In this document: one piece after another, positions 5,108 to 52,525 of the stretch | Layout of the letters: every line of letters begins with the position of its first letter | Numbering within the stretch: position 1 is the stretch's first letter | From: Bacillota bacterium | Lineage (GTDB): Bacteria; Bacillota; Clostridia; Christensenellales; UMGS416 | Length of the DNA: 52,542 nt | Direction of reading: 5' to 3' | NCBI GenBank assembly: GCA_023409755.1 | Contig: JAEYRA010000155.1 | Coordinates: 1 to 52,542 of the forward strand | The notes under the pieces: generated by a model | The model's database searches: none | Seen by the model: the letters and a program-made list of their open reading frames with translations, nothing else | What the model was told of the DNA's origin: nothing | Program-made: the position numbers and the translations under genes

Positions 5108-6332
5108 TGATGCCCTCCTCCCAGGCCAGGCGAGCCAGCGGGAACGGCTCCAACACCCGGGGCAGAATGCCCTGCACACAGGCGATGAGCACGCCGTAGT
5201 TGACGATGGGCACCCCGGCTGACCGTGCTTCGGCAAGTCGGGTTTGCATCTCGGCGCGGTTGAGCATGCACGCGCCGCAGTGCACCACCAGGGCGAAGCG
5301 GTTGAGGTCCTCTGGGTAGGTCATGCCGGCGGTGAAGGAAAAGCGGAGTTCCCGGCCCGTCATCTCCCGTAGCCAGCGCGGAATCTTCACCCGGCCAATG
5401 TCGTCAGCCTGCTGGTGATGGGTGCAGCCCTCAGCGATGAGCACCTCGTCGCCGTCCTTGAGGCATGCAATGGCCCGCGCGCCCAACACCAGCTGCTCCA
5501 GGTCGCCCTTGTACCGCGCGAACAGGATGGAGAAGCTCGTCAGCATCACATCCCGCGGCACATCGGCTGAGACTTTCAGGAACACCTGGGAGTCGGTGAC
5601 GACCAGTCGGGGTTTCTCCCCCAACAGGGCGAGGGTGCGGCGCAGCTCATGCTCCTTGGTCACCAGGGCCACGGCGTCGTTCTCCAGCACATCACGGATG
5701 ACCTGCTGCTGGGGCAGGATGAGCCGGCCCTTGGGCGCGGCTTTGTCGATGGGTGTCACCAGCACCACCACGTCGCCGGGGCGCACGAGGTCGCCCAGCA
5801 ACTTCAGTCTGCCCTCCCCGGTGGGTGCAGCCCCGGCGATGGCCTGGCGCAGGCCTTCCACCCCAAGGCCGGTGGCGGCGGACACCACGTGCACCGGTAC
5901 GCCCAGCGCTGCCCCCAGCACCGCCACGTCCACCGGGCCTGTGTCGGCCTTGTTGGCCACCACCAGTACCGGCAGTTTCTTGGCCTGCAGACGGGTTAAG
6001 ATGTCCCGGTCGGCGTCCGTCACACCAAAGCTTCCATCCAGCACCAACACAGCCAGGTCGGTGCGGCCCAGCACAGCCATCGTCTTGGCCACGCGCTTGT
6101 CCCCCAGTTCCCCCTCGTCATCGAGCCCAGCGGTGTCAATGAGCACGCAGGGGCCCAGCGGCAATATCTCCATGGTCTTGTAAACCGGGTCGGTCGTGGT
6201 GCCGGCCACGTCGGAGACGATGGCTGCCTGCTGGCCCGTCACGGCGTTGATGAGGCTCGATTTGCCGGCGTTGCGCCGCCCGAAGAAGGCGATGTGAAGC
6301 CGTTCGGCCTTTGGGGTTTGGTTCATCGTCAT
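5100..6332 (-). CDS. hydF: [FeFe]-hydrogenase maturation GTPase HydF
   Basis: P-loop GRRNAGKSS and the DTAG motif. C-terminal FeS-binding motifs are CTHH ... HCGACM. RBS GGAAGGAGA lies 5 nt before ATG 6332. Confidence 0.92.
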   Translation of the reverse strand: MTMNQTPKAERLHIAFFGRRNAGKSSLINAVTGQQAAIVSDVAGTTTDPVYKTMEILPLGPCVLIDTAGLDDEGELGDKRVAKTMAVLGRTDLAVLVLDGSFGVTDADRDILTRLQAKKLPVLVVANKADTGPVDVAVLGAALGVPVHVVSAATGLGVEGLRQAIAGAAPTGEGRLKLLGDLVRPGDVVVLVTPIDKAAPKGRLILPQQQVIRDVLENDAVALVTKEHELRRTLALLGEKPRLVVTDSQVFLKVSADVPRDVMLTSFSILFARYKGDLEQLVLGARAIACLKDGDEVLIAEGCTHHQQADDIGRVKIPRWLREMTGRELRFSFTAGMTYPEDLNRFALVVHCGACMLNRAEMQTRLAEARSAGVPIVNYGVLIACVQGILPRVLEPFPLARLAWEEGING

Positions 6333-9974: not shown

Positions 9975-11707
9975 GCCCGCGCCTCCTCTCCCACCTGCTG
10001 GGAGGCGCAGATCTCCCGATAGGCCTCGCAGGTGCGCAGAAGTTCATCATGGGTGCCCACACCGGCCAGCTTACCATCCTCCAGCACGAGGATGCGATCG
10101 GCCCCCCGCACCACCGACACCCGCTGGGAGAGGAGCAGCACCGTCCGTGTCCCCTCCATCCGGCGGATGGCCGTGCGCAGCCGTGCGTCGGTCAGGTAGT
10201 CGAGCGCGCTGGATGCGTCATCCAGAATGAGGATCTCCGCCTGGGCGGCCAGGGCCCGAGCAATCGTCAACCGCTGCCGCTGCCCGCCGGAGAGGTTCAC
10301 CCCGCCCCGCTCCACCGGAGAATCGTACCCCTGGGGCAGCGTAGCGATGAACTCATCGGCCTGGGCGGTGGCGGCGGCCGTTCGCACGCCGTCGTCATCA
10401 GCCTCCCCCGCCCAGCGGATGTTCTCCGCCACCGTGCCGCCAAAGAGCGTGGCCTTCTGGAAGACAATGCCAATCTTGCGCCGCAGGGCATCGGCGGCAT
10501 ACTCCTCCACCGGCACACCATCCACCAGCAGCGTGCCGGATGTCACCGGGTAGAAGCGCGGGATGAGCTGGCCCAGCGTCGTTTTGCCCGCACCGGTGCC
10601 GCCGATGATGCCCACCGTCTCCCCACGGGCAATGGAGAACGATAGATTCTCAAGAGCCAGGTCGCCGCCGATGTGGTAGCCGAAGGACACATCCCGGAAC
10701 TCGATGGCCGGGGCATTGGTGATGGGCACAGACGGTGTGGCCGTGCCCGCAGCTTCGGTGGCCTCCACCGGCTCGTGCAGCACCTCGTTGACCCGTGCCG
10801 CCGAAGCCATGGACTTGGTGAGGAGGATGATGAGGTTGGAGAGCACCAACAGTGCCGCCAGAATCTGACTGGCGTAGTTGATGAACGCGATGATCTGCCC
10901 CTGGGAGAGGCCCCCCGCCTGCACCCGGCCGCCGCCCACCCACAGGATGAGCACGATGAGCCCATTGACGACCAGCGACGTGAGCGGGTTGAAGAGCGCC
11001 GACACCGTGCCGATGGCAAAGCCGTTGCCCATGAGCTCCCCATTGACGGCGGCAAAGCGCTCCTTTTCCTGGGTGTTCTTGGTGAAGGCGCGGATGACCC
11101 GCACACCGGCCAAGTGCTCTCGAAGCACGTTGGACAGGCGATCGAGCCGCCCCTGGTAGGCGCGGTAGAGCGGTCCCGCGGCCTTTGTGATGAAGAAGAT
11201 GATGGCCGCCAGAAGCGGCGTGGCCGCCACCAGCAGAAGCGCCAGCCGTGCATCCAGCAGGAATGCCATGAGGATCGACCCCAGCAGGATGAACGGCGCG
11301 CGGGACACCAATCGGATCATCATCGCCACCCACACCTGCAGCTGGTTGACGTCGTTGGTCAGCCGTGTCGTCAGCGTGGGGGCGCCGTAGCGGTCCATCT
11401 GCGGGAAGGAGAAGGTCAGGATCTTGGCAAAAAGCGCATTGCGAAGGTCGGTGCCGAAGCCCTGGGATGCCTGGGCGGCGTAGCGCTGACACACCGCGGC
11501 GCAGCCAAAGCCCAGGCAGGCCAACCCCGCCATCACAAGGCCCATGCGCACGACATAGCCGCCATCGCCCCGCCCCACGCCATTGTTGATGATGAGCGCC
11601 AGGATGGTGGGCAGCAACAACTCGAAGATGACCTCCGAAAACTTGAACAACGGCCCCAGAATGCATTGTTTCTTATATTTCTTGAGGAAGACCGCCAGCT
11701 CCAGCAC
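9971..11707 (-). CDS. ABC exporter, fused permease/ATPase subunit (heterodimer partner A)
   Basis: Walker A GGTGAGKTT, signature LSGGQRQRLTIAR, Walker B LILDDASS. GTG start at 11707 is preceded by GGGGG with a 7-nt spacer. Confidence 0.9.
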   Translation of the reverse strand: MLELAVFLKKYKKQCILGPLFKFSEVIFELLLPTILALIINNGVGRGDGGYVVRMGLVMAGLACLGFGCAAVCQRYAAQASQGFGTDLRNALFAKILTFSFPQMDRYGAPTLTTRLTNDVNQLQVWVAMMIRLVSRAPFILLGSILMAFLLDARLALLLVAATPLLAAIIFFITKAAGPLYRAYQGRLDRLSNVLREHLAGVRVIRAFTKNTQEKERFAAVNGELMGNGFAIGTVSALFNPLTSLVVNGLIVLILWVGGGRVQAGGLSQGQIIAFINYASQILAALLVLSNLIILLTKSMASAARVNEVLHEPVEATEAAGTATPSVPITNAPAIEFRDVSFGYHIGGDLALENLSFSIARGETVGIIGGTGAGKTTLGQLIPRFYPVTSGTLLVDGVPVEEYAADALRRKIGIVFQKATLFGGTVAENIRWAGEADDDGVRTAAATAQADEFIATLPQGYDSPVERGGVNLSGGQRQRLTIARALAAQAEILILDDASSALDYLTDARLRTAIRRMEGTRTVLLLSQRVSVVRGADRILVLEDGKLAGVGTHDELLRTCEAYREICASQQVGEEARA

Positions 11708-30283: not shown

Positions 30284-31120
30284 TCAATTCATGGCGATGA
30301 TGCGATCCAGCGCGGCCGATGTGTTGGGCACAAGCTGGTCGCTGTAGTACCGGTAGGCGGACAGTTCCGCCGTCAGGTAGCCGTCGTAGCCCACCCGGCG
30401 AAGCGCCTCCACCACCGCCGGGAAGTTGACGTCGCCGGTCAGCAGGTCGGTGAAGCCATTGATGTTGCCAACGGAGCACTTAAAGTCCTTGACGTGCACG
30501 CGGACAATGCGCTTGCCGAGGATATCAATCCACTGCTCAGGATAACCAAACTGCAGCACGTTGCCTACATCAAAGTAGCTCTGCACGAAGGGTGATTCGC
30601 AGGCGTCCACAAAGGCGGCCATCTCCAGCGGCGACAGCAGGAATTTGTTCCACACATTCTCCACCCCGATGACGACGCCACAGGCCGCCGCGTGGGGCGC
30701 TGCCGCCCGCAGGAAATCGAGAGCACGATCGTAGGCCACATCGTAGCGCACCGGCGGCGCGTCGACAAACTCCGCCCCAACCATACCGGGAACCACCAGA
30801 ATGGCCCCCACGCCCAGCAATGCAGCTATTTCCAGCTGGCGTTTGACGAGCTCCAATGCCTTGGCGCGCACCTCGGCATCACCAGACGTGGGCGGGCAAG
30901 CCCAGTACACACCGGTGGACAGCGAAGCCAGCGCAAGACCGCATGCTTCCGCGCGCGCCTTCAACGCCAACACATCGCGGTCGGTGCTGTCCGGGGTCAG
31001 GTACCCGTCCAGGGCGAAGTTCGGCTCCACCGCCCCAAAGCCTGCGGCAGCGGCGGCCTCAAAGCACTGCTCCGGCTGCCAGCCGCCGGGGAACGACCAC
31101 AGATTGATCGATTTGATCAC
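30284..31120 (-). CDS. Sugar phosphate isomerase/epimerase (xylose isomerase-like TIM barrel)
   Basis: Motifs GVENVWN and VHVKDF. The start is trimmed to GTG 31120 (MIKSINLW...) after GGGGGTG. The upstream part of the track ORF overlaps the divergent promoter region. Confidence 0.8.
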   Translation of the reverse strand: MIKSINLWSFPGGWQPEQCFEAAAAAGFGAVEPNFALDGYLTPDSTDRDVLALKARAEACGLALASLSTGVYWACPPTSGDAEVRAKALELVKRQLEIAALLGVGAILVVPGMVGAEFVDAPPVRYDVAYDRALDFLRAAAPHAAACGVVIGVENVWNKFLLSPLEMAAFVDACESPFVQSYFDVGNVLQFGYPEQWIDILGKRIVRVHVKDFKCSVGNINGFTDLLTGDVNFPAVVEALRRVGYDGYLTAELSAYRYYSDQLVPNTSAALDRIIAMN

Positions 31121-45097: not shown

Positions 45098-47815
45098 CTA
45101 TCCATCCTGCCCTTCCAGCGGCAGGTGAATGGCTTTGGAAAAAGCTTCCACGACCTCCGGGTCATATCGGCTCCCAACCAGAGCGCGCAGTTCATCCAGC
45201 GCCTCCTCCTTGGTGTACTGCCGGCTGCTGTATCTGCCGCAGCGCATGGCATCGTAGCTGTCGGCCACCGCCAGAACGCGGGAATAGAGCGGGATGTCCG
45301 TCCCCTTGAGGTGGCGGGGGTATCCGCTGCCGTCCATACGCTCGTGGTGGCACAGCAGGAAGTCGGCCATCCATGCCAGCTCCCGATTGGCCTTAATGAT
45401 GTGGTATCCAACCTCAGGGTGGCGGCGCAACTCCTTCCAGTTTTCTTCCGTCAGCGCTCCCTTCTTGCTCAGCATCTTGGGGCTGATAACAATCTTGCCA
45501 ATGTCATGCACCTCGCCCACTTTACGCAGTTCCTCAGACCGCTCCACGGGCAGGCCAAGCTCCAGAGCGGTACGGGCCGCCAACTCGCTGACACGCTGGG
45601 CGTGCTGGCGCTCCCACGGTACCCGGCGGAAGAGTTCCTCCAGCAGGACAACAGCGAGTTTGCCGTTCTCCTGTTGGTTCTCCAGCGTCTTGTTGCGGTA
45701 CATGGCGTCCTCCGCCAGGCTCATGGCGTCGTTGAAGGGCTGAACGCTCTCCTGCTTGGTGTAGCTGCCAATGGAAATGGACAGATCGACCAAACCCACC
45801 TTATGTCCCTTTGTGGCATTCTTGAGCCGCTCCGTGAGACGAGCAGCCTCATCAGCGCTGGTACGGGGCAGCAGCAGTACAAACTCATCGCCACCCCAAC
45901 GGGCCAAAATATCATCGCGCCGACAAACGGAAGAGAGCACTTCCGCTGCCTTGCGCAGCAGGTCGTCACCGGCAAGGTGCCCAAACACATCGTTGGCCAG
46001 CTTCAGGCCGTTGACATCGCCCATGACGATGGTGAGCGGCAGGTTGCGCTCCACGTCCAGCCGGTGCAGCTCCTCCTCAAAGAACCGCCGGTTGTATAGG
46101 CCGGTCAGGCTGTCATGATAGCTGAGGTAGGCAATGGCACGTTGTTTGTTCTTCTCCTCCGTCACGTCGTCGAAGGCGATCACAATACCGCGCAGCCGTC
46201 CCTGCTGGCGGGCGGCCGTCACCCCGCCGGCAATGAAATACTCCACGCCGTTGCGGGATTGGAGAATGCAGCCTTCCAGCGGGAGCGTTCCCTGCTCTCC
46301 ACCATCGGCGAAGCGCTCCACCGGGAAGGAGCGGGGGTAACGCGTGTTCTCGTCGACGGTGCGGAAGACCTCTTGAATAGGCTGTCCGATGGCATCTTCC
46401 TCCTGCCATCCGGTCAGCAGTGCTGCACGGTCGTTGATGATGGTGACGATGCCGTTGACATCAGTGGCGATGACAGCCTCGCTGAGCGCCGTTATGGTGG
46501 AGCGGAAGAGCTCGCGTTCCTCTGCCAGTCGCTGTTCGGAGCGCTTGCGCTGCACGAATTGCAGCGTACTCTCCAGCAGGATCGTCACCTGCCACAGGTC
46601 CATGGCATTGTAGTCCGTCTCCTTGTTGGCCAGACCAATCGTCAGCAGCACGTCCTCCTGGTCGTTCATCGGCATCAGCAGAAAGGTGCGAATCTCACCG
46701 GCCAACGCCGTCAGGGGCGTTGGGGGGATGGCATCGTGTACCCCCAACAGAACCGGACACCGGCGTTCCTCCACTTCCCGCAGGAAGTCAATGGCGCCAC
46801 CGTCCAGCGGCACCCCATTCTCCGTCTGCCGCACCTGGGCCGACCGGGACCACAGCCACCGTTCGGGCTCACAGCCATCGCCTTTGTTCACGATAAACCC
46901 CAGGTCGCTGCCCGACAACTTCAGTATCTCTTCCAGCACATAGGCGAGGATCTCATCCTCGTCGTCGCCGTCGTGGTTGAATACCTTCACCAAACTCTCG
47001 TTGCGCTGGTTGCTTTTGCGCACTTCATCTTGGGCCAGCACGGTCTCGGTCACATCCCGAAAGACCGTGACGAACTGCCCTGGCTCATGGCTGAACACCG
47101 ACACGTCCAAGTGCTTTCCCTTGGGCGCGAAATAGGACTGGAAACGATCGGGCCGGCCTGTGCGCACCACCCGGGCGTACTGCTCCAGGTAAGCGGGCTC
47201 CTCCGTACCGTAGAGCTCATCCCCCAGGCGCCCGATGGCCTGCTCCCGCGGGATCTGCATGATGCGCTCAAACCCGGGGTTGACGTCAAGCGTGCGGTAA
47301 TTGACGGGTTCCCCCGCCACGTCATACACCATTTCCCGCACACAGACGCCCTCGGTCATCGCCTCGAACAACAGGCGATAATGAGTGGTGCTGGCCAGCG
47401 GCCGGTCCGCTCCCCAGCGCTTCCGCAGGTCCCTCACGAAGACAAGCCACAGCGGCCGGCTCTCCAGCTCCACCAAAGTAGATGACACCTCCACCGAGAA
47501 CGGACGGCCATCCTTGCGGAAGTGAGTCGTCTCAAGAGGCAGTCCCTCTGCCAGCGCTTGCTGGGACAAGCTGTCCGGGAACTCCCCCCTCCACAGGTCG
47601 GTAAGCGTCAGCGCCAAAATCTCTTCCAGCGTATAATCATAGGCTGCCAGCGCCGCAGGGTTGGCCTGCAGAATCCGTCCCTCGGGTTCGGTGATGAGAA
47701 CGATGTCCCGAGCCTTATCAAAAAGCGTTTCAAAGCGTTGCAATGACGCTACCGCCTTTCCACAAATCTCATTCGTACCAAAGAGCGTACGCACTGGTGG
47801 ACACCGCCAGGGCAC
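45098..47815 (-). CDS. Multidomain c-di-GMP signalling protein: PAS/GAF sensor domains plus GGDEF plus HD-GYP
   Basis: Intact RWGGDEFVLLL (GGDEF) and HHERMDGSGYP (HD-GYP) motifs, with several PAS-like repeats and a GAF-like segment. The start is uncertain. The track ORF starts at GTG 47815, inside glpP. TTG 47743 after GGAAAGG is the first start downstream of the glpP stop. Confidence 0.88.
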   Translation of the reverse strand: MPWRCPPVRTLFGTNEICGKAVASLQRFETLFDKARDIVLITEPEGRILQANPAALAAYDYTLEEILALTLTDLWRGEFPDSLSQQALAEGLPLETTHFRKDGRPFSVEVSSTLVELESRPLWLVFVRDLRKRWGADRPLASTTHYRLLFEAMTEGVCVREMVYDVAGEPVNYRTLDVNPGFERIMQIPREQAIGRLGDELYGTEEPAYLEQYARVVRTGRPDRFQSYFAPKGKHLDVSVFSHEPGQFVTVFRDVTETVLAQDEVRKSNQRNESLVKVFNHDGDDEDEILAYVLEEILKLSGSDLGFIVNKGDGCEPERWLWSRSAQVRQTENGVPLDGGAIDFLREVEERRCPVLLGVHDAIPPTPLTALAGEIRTFLLMPMNDQEDVLLTIGLANKETDYNAMDLWQVTILLESTLQFVQRKRSEQRLAEERELFRSTITALSEAVIATDVNGIVTIINDRAALLTGWQEEDAIGQPIQEVFRTVDENTRYPRSFPVERFADGGEQGTLPLEGCILQSRNGVEYFIAGGVTAARQQGRLRGIVIAFDDVTEEKNKQRAIAYLSYHDSLTGLYNRRFFEEELHRLDVERNLPLTIVMGDVNGLKLANDVFGHLAGDDLLRKAAEVLSSVCRRDDILARWGGDEFVLLLPRTSADEAARLTERLKNATKGHKVGLVDLSISIGSYTKQESVQPFNDAMSLAEDAMYRNKTLENQQENGKLAVVLLEELFRRVPWERQHAQRVSELAARTALELGLPVERSEELRKVGEVHDIGKIVISPKMLSKKGALTEENWKELRRHPEVGYHIIKANRELAWMADFLLCHHERMDGSGYPRHLKGTDIPLYSRVLAVADSYDAMRCGRYSSRQYTKEEALDELRALVGSRYDPEVVEAFSKAIHLPLEGQDG

Positions 47816-48335
47816 CAGCCGCCAGCGCGTCGATGATCTCCGACCGTTCCGTCACCATGCCGCCGGCGATGACTGGCCTGCCCGCCCCACCAAACTGTCC
47901 AATGGCCTTGGGAATGAGCCCCGGCATGATCTCAACAAAGTCCGGCCCGCTCTGGCAGACCAACTGGATCCCGCTGCGGATGGAGGCACTGTCCAACAGG
48001 AAGACCCGCTGTACCGCCAATAACCCCAGTTCCTTGGCCTTTCGCACCAGGTTGGATCGGGTGGTGATGATGCCCGCCGGCTGCCAGTGGCGGGCGGCGT
48101 AAATGAGCCCCGCCTCGTCCCGCCCAACGCCTTCGATGAGATCCATGTGCAGGAACACCAGCTTGTCTCCAGCGGCCAGTTCGGTCAAAATGTCATCCAT
48201 TGTGAGGATCGTGCCGCCCAGCACAAAGGCCACCGACACCGGGGAACGCGCTGCGTTGCGGGCGTCCTCGGCCGTCTTGACGGCGGCAATGACCGGTCCG
48301 TCCGCCATGGCGGCATAGGCATCTTGAAAGGTCAT
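47769..48335 (-). CDS. glpP: Glycerol-3-phosphate responsive antiterminator GlpP family protein
   Basis: 188 aa with the layout typical of GlpP (PVIAAVK ... VFLHMDLIEGVG ... GIITTRSNLVRKAKELG ... FVEIMPG). The call is from recollected family similarity. Confidence 0.8.
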   Translation of the reverse strand: MTFQDAYAAMADGPVIAAVKTAEDARNAARSPVSVAFVLGGTILTMDDILTELAAGDKLVFLHMDLIEGVGRDEAGLIYAARHWQPAGIITTRSNLVRKAKELGLLAVQRVFLLDSASIRSGIQLVCQSGPDFVEIMPGLIPKAIGQFGGAGRPVIAGGMVTERSEIIDALAAGALAVSTSAYALWYE

Positions 48336-48394
48336 GCCGCTCCCTCCCCGCCCTTTTCAAATCTGGCTGAGTACGAACCCATCCGTTTAAAATG

Positions 48395-48418
48395 AGAGGG
48401 AAGCGTCGTGCTTCCCTC
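48395..48418 (-). terminator. Hairpin plus U-rich tract between the acyl-CoA ligase and glpP
   Basis: Minus RNA is GAGGGAAGC-ACGAC-GCUUCCCUC followed by UCAUUUUAAA. It lies downstream of a TTGACA-18-TATGAT element (48463-48434), so it may be a terminator of the ligase gene or a glpP leader attenuator. Confidence 0.45.
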
Positions 48419-48475
48419 CTTGGATGCTATTTTATCATACGGTACCTGCTGGTACCCTGTCAAGGAAAAGAGCGC

Positions 48476-50140
48476 TCACGCTGTCTCGATCGCGTCAGCT
48501 TCCTCCAGATGAAGAAGGGCTACACCCATCTCCCGCAGCTTAAACTTCTGGATCTTCCCACTGGCAGTCATGGGGAACTCGTCCACAAAGTGGATGTAGC
48601 GAGGGGCCTTATGGCGGGAAAGACGCTCCCGGGTGTAGGCTACCAGGTCCTCGGCGGTCGCACCGCCCTGCTCCTTCAGAATGACGAAGGCACAGACCTC
48701 CTCGCCATAAACCTTATCGGGGACACCGACAACCTGCACATCCCGCACCGCAGGATGGGTGTACAGGAACTCCTCGATCTCCCGTGGGTAGATGTTCTCG
48801 CCGCCGCGGATGATCATGTCCTTCAATCGCCCGGTAATCTTGAAGTACCCCTCATCATCCATCGTGCCCAGGTCGCCAGTGTGCAGCCAGCCATCTTCAT
48901 CGATGGCCTGGCGAGTGGCTTCGGGCATCTTGTAGTAACCCTTCATGATGTTGAAACCGCGCGCCACAATCTCCCCCTGGGTGTCGGGCGGCAGGTCGCA
49001 GCCGGTTTCGGGGTCGACAATCTTGACCTCCATGTTAGGCAGCACCTTGCCAACGGTGGCCACGCGCTTTTCGATGGGGTCGTAGGTGCGGGTTTGGGTG
49101 ACGACCGGTGAGGCCTCTGTCTGACCATAGGCGATGGTAATCTCCGACATATTCATCTCGTCCACCACGCGGCGCATCACCTGCACCGGGCAAGGCGAAC
49201 CGGCCATGATGCCGGTGCGCAGTGACGAGTAGTCGTACTTCTTGAAGTCAGCATGCTCCAGGATGGCGATGAACATGGTGGGTACGCCGTGCAGAGCGGT
49301 GCAACGTTCCCGCTCCACTGCCTGCATCACCTTGAGGGGGTTGAAGTGCTCGATCATGACCATGGTGGTGGCGTGGGTGACCGAGGCCATGACGCCCAAC
49401 ACACAGCCGAAGCAATGGAACAGCGGCACCGGGATGCAAAGCCGGTCGGCGGTGGAGAACGCCATACAGTCGCCAATCATCTTGCCATCGTTGATGACGT
49501 TGTAGTGGGTCAGCATGACGCCTTTGGGAAAGCCGGTGGTGCCGGACGTGTACTGCATGTTGATGACGTCATGGGGCGTGAGCTCCGCCTTACGGGCGGC
49601 AAGCGCCGCGTCCGACACAGACTCGCCCATGGCATAGAGGTCGTCAAAGGCGAACATGCCCGGCTCACGCCTATCCCCCACCAGGATGACGTTCTTGAGG
49701 CAAGGCAGCCGGCGGGAGGCAAGCATGCCCGGCTCGCTGCCCGCAAGCTCCGGGCACAGCTCATGGACGATGCCGGTGTAGCTGGAGTCCTTGAACCCCT
49801 CGGTCAACACCAGTGTCATGGAATCAGACTGCCGCAGCAAATACTCAGCCTCAAAAATCTTGTAATTGGTGTTGACTGTGACCAGCACTGCGCCCATCTT
49901 GGCGGTGGAGAACATGCACAACAGCCACTCCGGGTAGTTGGTGGCCCAGATGGACACATGGTCGCCCTTGCCCACCCCCATGGCCATGAAACCCTTGGCC
50001 AGCCGGTCGCAGCGGTCATTGAACTCCCGATAGGTCCAACGCACCCCCTCATGGGGATAGACGACCGCTTCCTGGTCGGGGTGGTTAGCCGCCTGCTGTT
50101 CCAAAAGCTGCCCGATCGTACAGTTGAGCATCTGTTCCAT
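48476..50140 (-). CDS. AMP-binding acyl-CoA synthetase/ligase (ANL superfamily)
   Basis: Core motifs YTSGTTGFPKGVMLTH, GWLHTGDLG and PMTASGKIQK. RBS GAGGTGGGGGA precedes ATG 50140. Confidence 0.9.
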   Translation of the reverse strand: MEQMLNCTIGQLLEQQAANHPDQEAVVYPHEGVRWTYREFNDRCDRLAKGFMAMGVGKGDHVSIWATNYPEWLLCMFSTAKMGAVLVTVNTNYKIFEAEYLLRQSDSMTLVLTEGFKDSSYTGIVHELCPELAGSEPGMLASRRLPCLKNVILVGDRREPGMFAFDDLYAMGESVSDAALAARKAELTPHDVINMQYTSGTTGFPKGVMLTHYNVINDGKMIGDCMAFSTADRLCIPVPLFHCFGCVLGVMASVTHATTMVMIEHFNPLKVMQAVERERCTALHGVPTMFIAILEHADFKKYDYSSLRTGIMAGSPCPVQVMRRVVDEMNMSEITIAYGQTEASPVVTQTRTYDPIEKRVATVGKVLPNMEVKIVDPETGCDLPPDTQGEIVARGFNIMKGYYKMPEATRQAIDEDGWLHTGDLGTMDDEGYFKITGRLKDMIIRGGENIYPREIEEFLYTHPAVRDVQVVGVPDKVYGEEVCAFVILKEQGGATAEDLVAYTRERLSRHKAPRYIHFVDEFPMTASGKIQKFKLREMGVALLHLEEADAIETA

Positions 50141-50154
50141 GTGTCCCCCACCTC

Positions 50155-50446
50155 ATGCAAAAAATAAGAACGACCCTTCACCTGCCAGAGGCGAAGGGTC
50201 GTTTCGCGGTACCACTCTGATTGACGCCGAAGCGTCATCTCCACGGGCACAGAATGCCCTGTCCGGGGTTACGGCCGGCCACCGTCCAAGCCTACCAGCT
50301 CAGGCATCGCCTAAGATGCCATTGCCTTCGGTTGGCTACTCCGGGGCGAGAAGGAAACCGCTTGCCCTACCGCCTTGCACCACCCGGCGGCTCTCTGCGT
50401 GGACGTGGCGTTTCCGCATCCCCATCGTCGTATTTTCCGCTATTTT
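50155..50446 (-). promoter_or_regulatory. T-box riboswitch leader
   Basis: The minus RNA shows all the expected parts. Stem I has AG bulge AGAGAG and distal loop GGGUGGUGCAA on stem CCGCC/GGCGG. Stem III is GACGC-UUCG-GCGUC. The T-box sequence is AGAGUGGUACCGCG (50218-50205). The antiterminator is AGAG-UGGUACC-GCGAA...UUCGC-CUCU. The competing terminator is AACGACCCUUC...GAAGGGUCGUU plus U6 (50155-50203), directly before the RBS. Confidence 0.85.
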
Positions 50447-50452
50447 ACTGGG

Positions 50453-50481
50453 ATTATATGCTCTGCGCAACCGGATGTCAA
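50453..50481 (-). promoter_or_regulatory. Consensus sigma-70 promoter of the T-box leader
   Basis: On the minus strand, TTGACA (50481-50476), a 17-nt spacer and TATAAT (50458-50453). Confidence 0.65.
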
Positions 50482-50668: not shown

Positions 50669-51331
50669 CTACACAATAAAGAAATTGTCGTGACCGGGGA
50701 TGACGATGTCGGCATTACCCCGCACCCAGGCTAGGGACTGCTGGGCGGCTTCGGCATCCTCCTCGTATTCGCAGGTGGAGTGGCGGAAGTGGGGCCGCGA
50801 CATGACCGCGTCGCCGGTGGCCACGATGCGCCGCCCCTCGTGGCAGAAGGCAACGCCGTGGACGTCCCGCGTGTGGCCGGGCAGTGGCACCACACACACG
50901 CCGGGCAGGAACTCGCCTACGGCGGGCAGCACGCGGCTCTCGTCAATGCCAGGCGTGCCACGCAGGCGTTCGATGGTCGCCGGGGCCGCCAGCCACTGCG
51001 CCTGGGGGAAGTAGTTGCACCCCACGGCGTGGTCGCCATGGCAGTGAGTGATGAAACAATGGGTGACGGCCTCGGGCCGCAAGCCGCTGCGGCGGTTGAG
51101 GTCGAACCAGAATTCCTCGGGCCGCACTCGCTCGGTGGGGTCGATGACAAGCACATAGGGCGTGCCATCGGCCTGCACCCCGCGCATCAGGGTGGATGTG
51201 CAGGTGAACGGCTTGCCACGGGGACGGTTGTCCTCCCGCTCGCCGTAGTAGCGGTTCCAGCTGATGTGGCCGATGACGAGGATTTCCCAGTCGAGCACAC
51301 TGCTTTGCGGGGTGGGGAAGGGCATGGACAT
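50669..51331 (-). CDS. MBL-fold metallo-hydrolase
   Basis: THCHGDH (HxHxDH) motif and the downstream His/Asp ligands (PGHTRD, TGD). The start is trimmed to ATG 51331 after GGAGG. The remaining 381 codons of the track ORF are antisense to the methyltransferase gene. Confidence 0.85.
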   Translation of the reverse strand: MSMPFPTPQSSVLDWEILVIGHISWNRYYGEREDNRPRGKPFTCTSTLMRGVQADGTPYVLVIDPTERVRPEEFWFDLNRRSGLRPEAVTHCFITHCHGDHAVGCNYFPQAQWLAAPATIERLRGTPGIDESRVLPAVGEFLPGVCVVPLPGHTRDVHGVAFCHEGRRIVATGDAVMSRPHFRHSTCEYEEDAEAAQQSLAWVRGNADIVIPGHDNFFIV

Positions 51332-51610
51332 GGCAAGCCTCCGGTGCCGTCGGCGGGCGACGGGTTGTGGCAGAAGTATAGCAGGTTTTGCCGGGTGCCG
51401 CCAAGCAGAGGTATACAACAACGGGGCGGCCCCGGCTGCCCCGTTTCTGCAATCCACCCGCCACAGCCCCGTACGCCGGGGTGCACTGCACAGCGAGTCT
51501 TGATGGAATTTCGCTTTTAGCATGATTATATTACCACAGATTGGCGAAAATGTCAAGCCTTGCGGCCCTGCGCACACGGGTGTAAAGAATATAAGAAGGA
51601 GTTGATGCAC

Positions 51611-52525
51611 ATGGCAAACACAATCTCCACCGCGCTGGTGAGCGCTTTCGCCCGCGCCTTCCACCACCGGCACCACAACCCAGCCATCTACGACGACCCA
51701 CTGGCCGACCGCCTGCTGACCCCACAGGAATACGAAGGCATCGCCCACCACATGTCTGAGGGCATCGGGTTCTTCTGCCCCGGTTTTACCGGCAGCGAGG
51801 AGGAAGCCCTGCACTGGGTGGTGGACCAGCAGCTCTCCCCCACGCCGGTGGGTCGGGCAGCCTTTGCTGAGGAGGCGTTGGAGCGGGCCTGCGGGCAGGG
51901 CTTGGCGCAGTACGTGAACATCGCCGCGGGGTACGACACCTTCGCCTGCCGCGCGCCTGCCTGGGCCGATGGCTTGCAGATGTGGGAACTGGACCACCCC
52001 GCCACCGGGCAGGACAAACAGGCGCGGTTGCGGGCCGCCGGCATCGCCCTGCCCGGCAACGTACACGTTCTCTCCATCGACCTCAACCAGCAGGACTGGG
52101 CCCACGCCCTGCGTACCGACCCTACGTTCCACCCGGAGCGCCCGTGCTTTTTCGCCTTCCTCGGCATCTCCTACTATCTGGCGGAGGATGCCCTGCGTAA
52201 CGCGTTTCGTTCGCTGGCGACCCTGTCGCCCCGTAGCAGCCTGCTCGCCTTCGATTACCCCGACGAAGACGCCCTGACGGACCGGGCCGGCAGCCGCGCC
52301 AAGCGCCAGGCAGCGCTGGCCGCAACAGCCGGTGAGCCCATGCTGGCGGGGTACTCCCCCCAACGGATGGAAGCCCTGCTGGCGGACTGCGGCTTTAGGG
52401 TGGTGGAACACCTCGCCCCGCCGCAGATCACCGAACGGTTCTTCCGCGCCCACAACGAAGCCGACCCCACTCACGCCATGACGGCCTTTGACAACGTCAA
52501 CTACTGCCTGGCCATGCGGGCATGA
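51611..52525 (+). CDS. Class I SAM-dependent methyltransferase (LCM/O-methyltransferase-like family)
   Basis: The motif YVNIAAGYDTFA resembles the V-x-L-G-A-G-x-D-T SAM motif of the leucine carboxyl/O-methyltransferase family. ATG 51611 lies 9 nt after AAGGAG; ATG 51605 is an alternative. Confidence 0.8.
   Translation: MANTISTALVSAFARAFHHRHHNPAIYDDPLADRLLTPQEYEGIAHHMSEGIGFFCPGFTGSEEEALHWVVDQQLSPTPVGRAAFAEEALERACGQGLAQYVNIAAGYDTFACRAPAWADGLQMWELDHPATGQDKQARLRAAGIALPGNVHVLSIDLNQQDWAHALRTDPTFHPERPCFFAFLGISYYLAEDALRNAFRSLATLSPRSSLLAFDYPDEDALTDRAGSRAKRQAALAATAGEPMLAGYSPQRMEALLADCGFRVVEHLAPPQITERFFRAHNEADPTHAMTAFDNVNYCLAMRA

Follow-up and report, generated by a model that had tools for sequence, protein, structure and literature searches.

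Leucine-specific T-box leaders have been described for leuS, for the ilv-leu operon of Bacillus and for leuA of Geobacter (PMC2700814), where they act by attenuation through a CUC-type specifier matched to tRNA-Leu(GAG), a UGGU bulge and the competition of a terminator with an antiterminator. The same mechanism can be read from a leader on the minus strand of a 52,542-nt stretch of DNA from a Bacillota bacterium of the Christensenellales (assembly GCA_023409755.1, contig JAEYRA010000155.1, positions 1 to 52,542; the whole stretch is called the window below), where it precedes the gene of an acyl-CoA ligase. The RNA belongs to the known T-box family, in which these three Leu T-boxes are its nearest functional kin. 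It differs from them in that it regulates an acyl-CoA ligase, not a synthetase, a biosynthetic enzyme or a transporter, and in that it has no S-turn, is enlarged by insertions within Stem II and ahead of Stem III, and stays below the gathering score of the family. With the glyQS-type T-boxes (PMC7583486, PMC6197855) it shares the Stem I K-turn, the specifier loop, the AG bulge, the distal-loop platform and the 7-nt antiterminator bulge; glyQS leaders, however, are devoid of Stem II and Stem IIA/B, both of which are present here, and the specifier loop of the window leader is compact (5' AUGC, 3' UUCUCG), with no AGUA/GAA.

In the accessible portions of the literature, T-box targets are aminoacyl-tRNA synthetases and genes for making and transporting amino acids. 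The comparative surveys Wels 2008 and Sun 2013, as far as their text and supplements were available, name no CoA ligase among the targets, in agreement with the preliminary description of this DNA, which had called the target atypical; the pairing may be catalogued elsewhere without comment. In a full-text literature search, neither acyl-CoA ligases nor isovalerate were connected with a T-box by any paper. The acyl-CoA ligase is an unusual and apparently undiscussed class of T-box target, combined here with a lineage-specific loss of the S-turn. The leader itself is almost certainly a genuine transcription-attenuating T-box specific for tRNA-Leu. Its promoter and 5' elements are the following:

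50453..50481, minus strand: sigma-70-type promoter, TTGACA at 50481..50476 and TATAAT at 50458..50453 with a 17-nt spacer, 12/12 in a consensus scan
50184..50437, minus strand: T-box leader, RF00230, matching the full-length model (positions 1-219/219) with 68.8 bits
50339..50426, minus strand: Stem I, from the Rfam alignment and the RNAalifold consensus of 31 leaders
50426..50425 and 50342..50339, minus strand: K-turn, GA and GGAG, from the Rfam alignment
50423..50420 and 50346..50343, minus strand: Stem I base helix, GGGG/CCCC, from the Rfam alignment
50396..50392, minus strand: AG bulge, AGAGA, aligned to the Rfam consensus and kept in all leaders
50391..50369, minus strand: distal helix and loop, GCCGCC-GGGUGGUGCAA-GGCGGU, from the Rfam alignment
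50385..50375, minus strand: distal loop GGGUGGUGCAA, aligned to the Rfam consensus and kept in all leaders
50352..50347, minus strand: 3' strand of the specifier loop, UUCUCG, from the Rfam alignment and the sequence
50350..50348, minus strand: specifier CUC (Leu), followed by G 50347 and then CCCC, at the Rfam specifier position and in 31/31 leaders

In a permissive Rfam scan RF00230 was the sole RNA-family match in all 52.5 kb, with an E-value of 6e-15 for the leader alone and 6.9e-13 for the whole window. The identification of a T-box behind a perfect TTGACA-17-TATAAT promoter, made previously from the letters alone, thus stands for the promoter as for the RNA, all the elements described then being present. 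The covariance model, which had been proposed as a check, gives a significant match of full length; its score lies under the gathering score of 93 bits in this Rfam release, a value which is an annotation threshold and not a biological feature. This is why default annotation misses the leader, and a default scan at gathering thresholds returned nothing in the whole window. Every contact motif is intact, the TTGAC and CATATAAT of the promoter are invariant in 5-6 related leaders, and the leader is free of genes in the gene calls made for the source contig.

The pairing of T-box and ligase is widespread. One genome per species was taken for the ortholog loci, giving 80 loci (cited by numbers such as L040 where they must be told apart) with ligases 58-67% identical, and exact look-ups of closer relatives (70-95% identity) added 6 further distinct loci. 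In 26/80 species-representative loci and in 6/6 close relatives, a T-box core motif precedes the ligase by 70-250 nt. All carriers are Clostridia, from several orders, and they include Christensenellaceae, Mahellales, Oscillospiraceae/Ruminococcaceae and a Lachnospiraceae metagenome-assembled genome (MAG) as well as Ruminiclostridium hungatei, Peptococcaceae, Desulfofundulus and Desulfotruncus; no T-box was found at any Bacillaceae, Desulfuromonadales/Geobacter-type or archaeal locus among the 80. A neighbour-joining tree of the ligases places most T-box-linked enzymes in one clade of Clostridia, with L040 and L048 beside the branch of Bacilli and Desulfuromonadales and L010 at a basal position, so that the link with a Leu T-box is found in at least three parts of the ligase family. 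As 12 of the 21 orthologous leaders scanned pass the gathering score (93.6-143 bits), the ligase leaders as a group are T-boxes by the standard of Rfam. In the close relatives the promoter hexamers, K-turn GA, AG bulge, distal loop, CUC, Stem II/IIA-B blocks and T-box sequence are invariant while Stem III and the terminator vary by compensatory substitutions, which argues for a working variant and not for a decaying remnant.

The amino acid that is sensed follows from the specifier, for which 31 Stem I segments were aligned with MAFFT and folded with RNAalifold. CUC is invariant in 31/31 of these segments, although their 3' ends were located by a pattern containing CTC, which makes the extraction circular for the codon. 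The register is nevertheless fixed independently, because the helix that starts one nt 3' of CUC covaries (GGGG/CCCC, GGAG/CUCC, GAAA/UUUC, GAAG/CUUC, AGGG/CCCU) and because CUC occupies the specifier position of the model in the Rfam alignments of both the window and L040. The base after CUC is G or A in 27/31 leaders, U in three and C in one. Base and distal helices both emerge in the RNAalifold consensus of the 31 leaders, with compensatory changes in 13/14 pairs, and the fold of the window leader shows a small specifier loop of AUGC on the 5' side and UUCUCG on the 3' side between two helices. The tentative choice of CUC (Leu) in the preliminary description is thereby confirmed, the alignment of orthologous leaders giving CUC as the conserved codon.

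The second codon offered there was UUC (Phe), which overlaps CUC in the UUCUCG strand of the window and would have the ligase activate phenylacetate. The A73 discriminator speaks for this reading as well, since tRNA-Phe also carries it. UUC, however, is found only in the window, L081 and L049, and the remaining 28 leaders have other triplets at that place, which reads CCUCUCA in L084, GGGCUCG in L085 and CCACUCA in L086. Because UUC varies while CUC is invariant in the canonical register, the Phe specifier was dropped and phenylacetate as the substrate with it; their probability is negligible.

The K-turn and S-turn had both been called non-canonical. For the S-turn this is borne out, as AGUA and GAA are both missing in the window, while for the K-turn it is true only of the preceding U, the window having CGA where most leaders have UGA; the G-A core is intact. 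Three bases of the K-turn do not vary across the 31 leaders, namely G and A on the 5' side and, on the 3' side, the A of GAG; the flanking helices covary. The S-turn consists of A(G/A)UA in the 5' strand and of GAA immediately ahead of the codon. Both halves occur together in 20/31 leaders and are absent together in 11/31 (the window, L081, L082, L084, L085, L086, L042, L049, L050, L010 and L025), with no leader having a single half. This paired loss looks like an alternative architecture and not like decay. Two of the S-turn-less leaders pass the gathering score (L082 with 97.2 and L050 with 93.6 bits), and L081, L084, L085, L086, L042 and L049 are under it. The low score of the window leader is explained by the loss of the S-turn as a unit in its lineage, and standard annotation under-reports the regulon of Leu T-box and ligase because S-turn-less leaders score at or below the gathering score.

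The 3' part of the leader holds the regulatory switch:

50336..50286, minus strand: Stem II with an inserted hairpin at 50320..50303, from the Rfam alignment with a 24-nt insertion
50285..50269, minus strand: Stem IIA/B region, from the Rfam alignment
50262..50243, minus strand: extra hairpin, from the fold
50236..50223, minus strand: Stem III, GACGCUUCGGCGUC, from the fold, with compensatory variation among relatives
50218..50205, minus strand: T-box sequence AGAGUGGUACCGCG, from the Rfam alignment
50218..50187, minus strand: antiterminator, -9.3 kcal/mol, with the canonical 7-nt bulge UGGUACC at 50214..50208
50214..50211, minus strand: UGGU in the bulge, which would pair with the 3' ACCA end of the tRNA (A73)
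50203..50159, minus strand: intrinsic terminator with a 15-bp stem (50203..50169) and a U-run, -26 kcal/mol, z -6.4
50154..50145, minus strand: ribosome-binding site (RBS) GAGGUGGGGG, read from the sequence

Stem II and the IIA/B region together (50269..50336) fold with -27.8 kcal/mol, and their blocks CCAACCGAA and GUAGGCUUGGACGG are kept in the relatives. Terminator and antiterminator, recognised as alternatives from the outset, exclude each other, since UUCGCCUCU is common to the terminator and the 3' strand of the antiterminator. The U-run of the terminator ends at 50159, which leaves about 4 nt to the RBS and 19 nt to the ATG at 50140; the earlier placement of the leader end 20 nt before the RBS has to be corrected to this extent. 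The UGGU of the bulge, also noted before, is present in all related leaders and calls for an A73 discriminator, which fits bacterial tRNA-Leu.

A score under the gathering threshold and a missing S-turn could also be expected of a decaying, non-functional T-box remnant or of a chance resemblance, with the ligase being expressed constitutively. Such an origin is very improbable, given that the match extends over the full model with an E-value of 6.9e-13 and every contact motif intact, that relatives with 77-95% identical ligases have kept the leader while changing it in a compensatory manner, that AGUA and GAA were lost together in 11/31 leaders, and that the terminator is strong, with its z of -6.4.

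In the mechanism that these elements suggest, transcription would begin at the strong constitutive promoter, after which the CUC of Stem I would read the anticodon (GAG) of tRNA-Leu while the platform of AG bulge and distal loop contacts the tRNA elbow. With uncharged tRNA, the free ACCA end would pair with UGGU in the 7-nt bulge and stabilise the weak antiterminator, allowing the polymerase to read into the ligase gene; with charged tRNA, the much stronger terminator would form about 19 nt before the start codon. The default state would be termination, with uncharged tRNA needed to stabilise the antiterminator, which is the usual T-box arrangement.

Single leaders among the orthologs show further features. 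The distance from the T-box motif to the ligase ATG is 230-250 nt in L009 (5786-6000), L025 and L034 and about 80 nt in the window, L081 and L082, and the longer spacer gave no Rfam match at gathering score in these three loci. In L018, a Peptococcaceae MAG, T-box sequence, antiterminator and terminator lie upstream of the ligase (about 1700-1960), with no recognisable Stem I within 750 nt and a GC-rich, repetitive upstream region (GGCG/GAGG runs); this leader may be truncated or rearranged. In L084, the ligase of which is 83% identical to that of the window, the 28-nt unit TGGCAGATTGCTGCGCAACTACCACCTG is repeated in tandem 2.9 times (2658-2738), at 98% match, within the part of the leader that holds Stem II. 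A second T-box (107 bits) lies a few kb downstream of the ligase in L015 (7439-7684), where the specifier by eye looks like UGG (Trp), and L009 has a tetrahydrofolate (THF) riboswitch at 11430-11531 (86 bits).

The gene behind the leader is as follows:

48476..50140, minus strand: ANL-superfamily acyl-CoA ligase of 554 aa, probably of the PRK12583 (YngI-like) subfamily, from Pfam and NCBIfam

The assignment to the ANL family, made already from the translation, is upheld by the two Pfam domains AMP-binding (PF00501, 3e-100, residues 13-403) and AMP-binding_C (PF13193, 9e-23, residues 454-529). Among the NCBIfam models PRK12583 ('fatty acid CoA ligase family protein') scores highest with 811 bits, 21 under its cut-off of 832 and 347 above the next family, which reaches 464; orthologs score 828 bits (L040) and 833 bits (L064). 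Homologs are abundant and named 'AMP-binding protein' or 'fatty-acyl-CoA synthase' by their sources. The orthologs are 58-95% identical to the ligase of the window, the nearest named one being from Christensenella (67%).

The closest described relatives of the enzyme are the YngI-type ligases of the yng (liu-like) cluster of Bacillus, which have 58-63% identity and the same best NCBIfam model (811 vs 833 bits). Around 620 neighbouring ORFs (open reading frames) of the ortholog loci were clustered and checked with Pfam. In Bacillaceae and relatives the genes follow one another as TetR regulator, acyl-CoA dehydrogenase, ligase, biotin carboxylase, HMG-CoA lyase, enoyl-CoA hydratase and carboxyltransferase, with the dehydrogenase directly upstream of the ligase in 12 loci. 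This is a yng/liu-type cluster of leucine/isovalerate catabolism (isovaleryl-CoA dehydrogenase, methylcrotonyl-CoA carboxylase, HMG-CoA lyase), and it ties the ligase family to the leucine carbon skeleton independently in Bacilli. The setting is a different one from that of the window: in Bacilli the yngI gene belongs to a TetR-controlled catabolic operon with no T-box, whereas here, in a genome of anaerobe type, it is a solitary gene preceded by a Leu T-box. A comparison of T-box-linked enzymes (n=33) with catabolic-cluster enzymes (n=14) found 194 of the 197 positions that are at least 85% conserved in both groups to be identical, including PxFHCFGCVLG and YGQTE, and hence gives no sign of a change of substrate.

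The two loci nearest to that branch of the family add a second tie to leucine. In L040 (Desulfofundulus thermosubterraneus) and L048 (Desulfotruncus alcoholivorax), both Desulfotomaculia, the order is Leu T-box, ligase, leuS; ligase and leuS are 34 nt apart in the former and about 220 nt apart in the latter. A leuS-like neighbour in L080 was dropped as evidence, since it encodes a synthetase of the IleS type and belongs to a housekeeping cluster with no T-box. The leaders of L040 and L048 also hold a complete tRNA-Ala(GGC) gene ending in CCA (5755-5829 and 5814-5889, respectively), which the Rfam alignment displays as 76 inserted nt in the Stem III apical loop, with Stem I/II before them and the antiterminator after them. 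Even with this tRNA the leader scores 119.7 bits, and the unit runs on into ligase and leuS; no other locus has a tRNA nested in its leader. A tRNA inside a riboswitch leader is unusual, and terminated leader transcripts would still deliver the tRNA.

A gene that is switched on by uncharged tRNA-Leu should raise the supply of leucine. T-box specifiers are reliable pointers to the amino acid served by the downstream gene. The recurrence of the pairing across many anaerobic Clostridia suggests that the ligase helps to supply leucine, probably via activation of isovalerate. Reductive carboxylation of isovalerate to leucine is a route of rumen and other anaerobes, and it would explain why an acid-activating enzyme is found in a leucine-starvation regulon. 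On this reading the PRK12583/YngI-type ligase would make isovaleryl-CoA by activating isovalerate or a branched C5 acid much like it. Reductive carboxylation of isovaleryl-CoA would give 4-methyl-2-oxopentanoate, from which transamination would yield leucine, and the switch would turn on leucine salvage when the charging of tRNA-Leu falls. In the catabolic cluster a ligase could serve in two ways, by activating isovalerate or by activating acetoacetate, the end product; isovalerate is preferred as the substrate because only its activation makes sense under leucine starvation.

We lean slightly towards this reading as a whole, a leucine-starvation switch for an isovalerate-activating ligase, in which tRNA response, substrate and pathway are all deduced. 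Taken separately, a substrate of the isovalerate type has, on contextual evidence, about an even chance, and use of the ligase for leucine synthesis somewhat less than that. The isovalerate-to-leucine salvage gains indirect support from the leucine/isovalerate catabolic clusters of Bacilli and from the adjacency of leuS in two genomes, which falls short of proof. Fitness data from P. putida have led to the suggestion that PP_4063, next to the isovaleryl-CoA dehydrogenase PP_4064, or PP_4549 attaches CoA to isovalerate. The literature retrieved assigns no gene to the isovalerate activation step of reductive carboxylation. PP_4063 may be a member of the PRK12583 subfamily. It is a tentative proposal that the unit of Leu T-box and PRK12583 ligase marks the missing first-step gene of the isovalerate-to-leucine route, which would fix isovalerate as the substrate of YngI/ACSF2-like enzymes.

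The invariant Leu codon gives a widespread, uncharacterised subfamily of ligases a concrete predicted function, namely activation of isovalerate for leucine supply. If true, this would put the gene on a salvage route relevant to the cross-feeding of branched short-chain acids in gut and rumen communities, and it would help to annotate YngI-type genes in the leucine-catabolic clusters of Bacillus.

Several results weigh against the salvage reading. At the level of the RNA these are the score of the window leader (68.8 vs 93 bits), its missing S-turn and the lack of any tRNA gene within the 52,542-nt window; a search for tRNA-Leu(GAG) genes found none in the window or in about 85 loci. At the level of the protein, the retrieved literature holds no demonstrated substrate for any enzyme of the PRK12583 subfamily, one source labels an ortholog acetoacetyl-CoA synthetase, and the best PDB matches cover residues 190-537 only (E about 1e-82), with no close solved structure. 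The neighbourhoods add that no 2-oxoacid:ferredoxin oxidoreductase or branched-chain aminotransferase is adjacent in about 90 loci; the oxidoreductase, whose presence beside the gene or elsewhere in the genome had been proposed as a check, is found near none of them. Nor did the clustered neighbours include a recurrent leucine-biosynthesis gene in the T-box loci.

The same Leu T-box and the same substrate would also fit a role in lipid synthesis, in which isovaleryl-CoA primes iso-branched fatty acids; under leucine scarcity the cell would make this primer from external isovalerate and no longer from leucine, which would thereby be spared. All RNA evidence agrees equally with such a role. It could do without a further enzyme for carboxylation, and the neighbourhoods contain none; in L026 a gene for an acyl-ACP thioesterase follows 36 nt after the ligase. 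This is, however, the single locus from which a link to lipids comes, T-box regulons are described, in the sources as far as available, as serving the supply of charged tRNA through synthetases, biosynthesis and transport, and a role in supply agrees better with the shared transcript of ligase and leuS in L040 and L048. We regard the lipid role as unlikely.

The commonest neighbours in Clostridia bear on a further alternative and form the last of the points against isovalerate salvage. There the ligase stands alone behind a Leu T-box, often with a TIM-barrel gene 5-50 nt or one gene downstream. This xylose-isomerase-like TIM-barrel protein (PF01261) is the commonest partner of the ligase in Clostridia, with 14 loci (at +1/+2 in L006, L007, L012, L014, L016, L017, L019, L025, L034, L036, L062, L069, L071 and L080), 9 of which have a T-box. 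In L052 (5065-7659) and P0097 it is fused to the N-terminus of the ligase, and in L007, L017 and L062 an Amidohydro_2 gene accompanies the two. The partner suggests that the two proteins are functionally coupled, for which the scheme of isovalerate salvage offers no explanation. It may be, then, that the Leu T-box is real and that the ligase acts on something else than isovalerate, such as acetoacetate, an acid of medium chain length or a compound that the TIM-barrel protein consumes or produces, in a new leucine-related pathway, a view to which the conserved partner with its fusions, the Amidohydro_2 genes and the label 'Acetoacetyl-CoA synthetase' of one ortholog all lend weight. Against it stands that activation of acetoacetate would bring no benefit under leucine starvation, that the conserved positions of the ligase are near-identical to those of the enzymes from isovalerate/leucine catabolic clusters, and that the lineage of the window has no TIM-barrel partner beside the ligase, a search of the window for an ortholog giving only a 24%-identical family member 18 kb away (30365..31081). 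A different substrate is improbable on this balance. In a bolder form of the tentative proposal on the missing first-step gene, ligase and adjacent or fused TIM barrel, with Amidohydro_2 in some genomes, would constitute an undescribed pathway of leucine supply.

In the window the ligase gene is followed by a further structure:

48388..48419, minus strand: hairpin (48419..48395) and U-run after the ligase stop, a likely terminator, -18 kcal/mol, z -5.4, kept in L081 and L084

A small hairpin with a U-run also follows the upstream gene of the metallo-beta-lactamase fold, and from these two structures the ligase can be taken as a monocistronic unit with its own promoter. In the lineage of the window the next gene, behind the terminator hairpin, encodes a GlpP-like antiterminator (47769..48335), and this synteny is seen in five related contigs. 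The 48388-48463 region of the minus strand, directly behind the ligase stop, holds another promoter-like site, TTGACA-18-TATGAT (11/12), upstream of the hairpin that precedes the GlpP-like gene; its hexamers and the hairpin are kept in L081 and L084. The hairpin could be the terminator of the ligase, an attenuator in the GlpP leader, or both.

Upstream of the leader, a 601-aa ORF starting with GTG (50669-52474, minus strand) is an over-extension; the gene calls instead give a 220-aa gene of the metallo-beta-lactamase fold (50669..51331, minus strand) and a divergent LCM-type methyltransferase-like gene (51611-52516, plus strand). The right end of the window, which is about the contig end, is reached some 2.4 kb upstream of the ligase. 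The G+C content is about 60% overall, with 0.50 at positions 1-2000 against 0.55-0.68 elsewhere.

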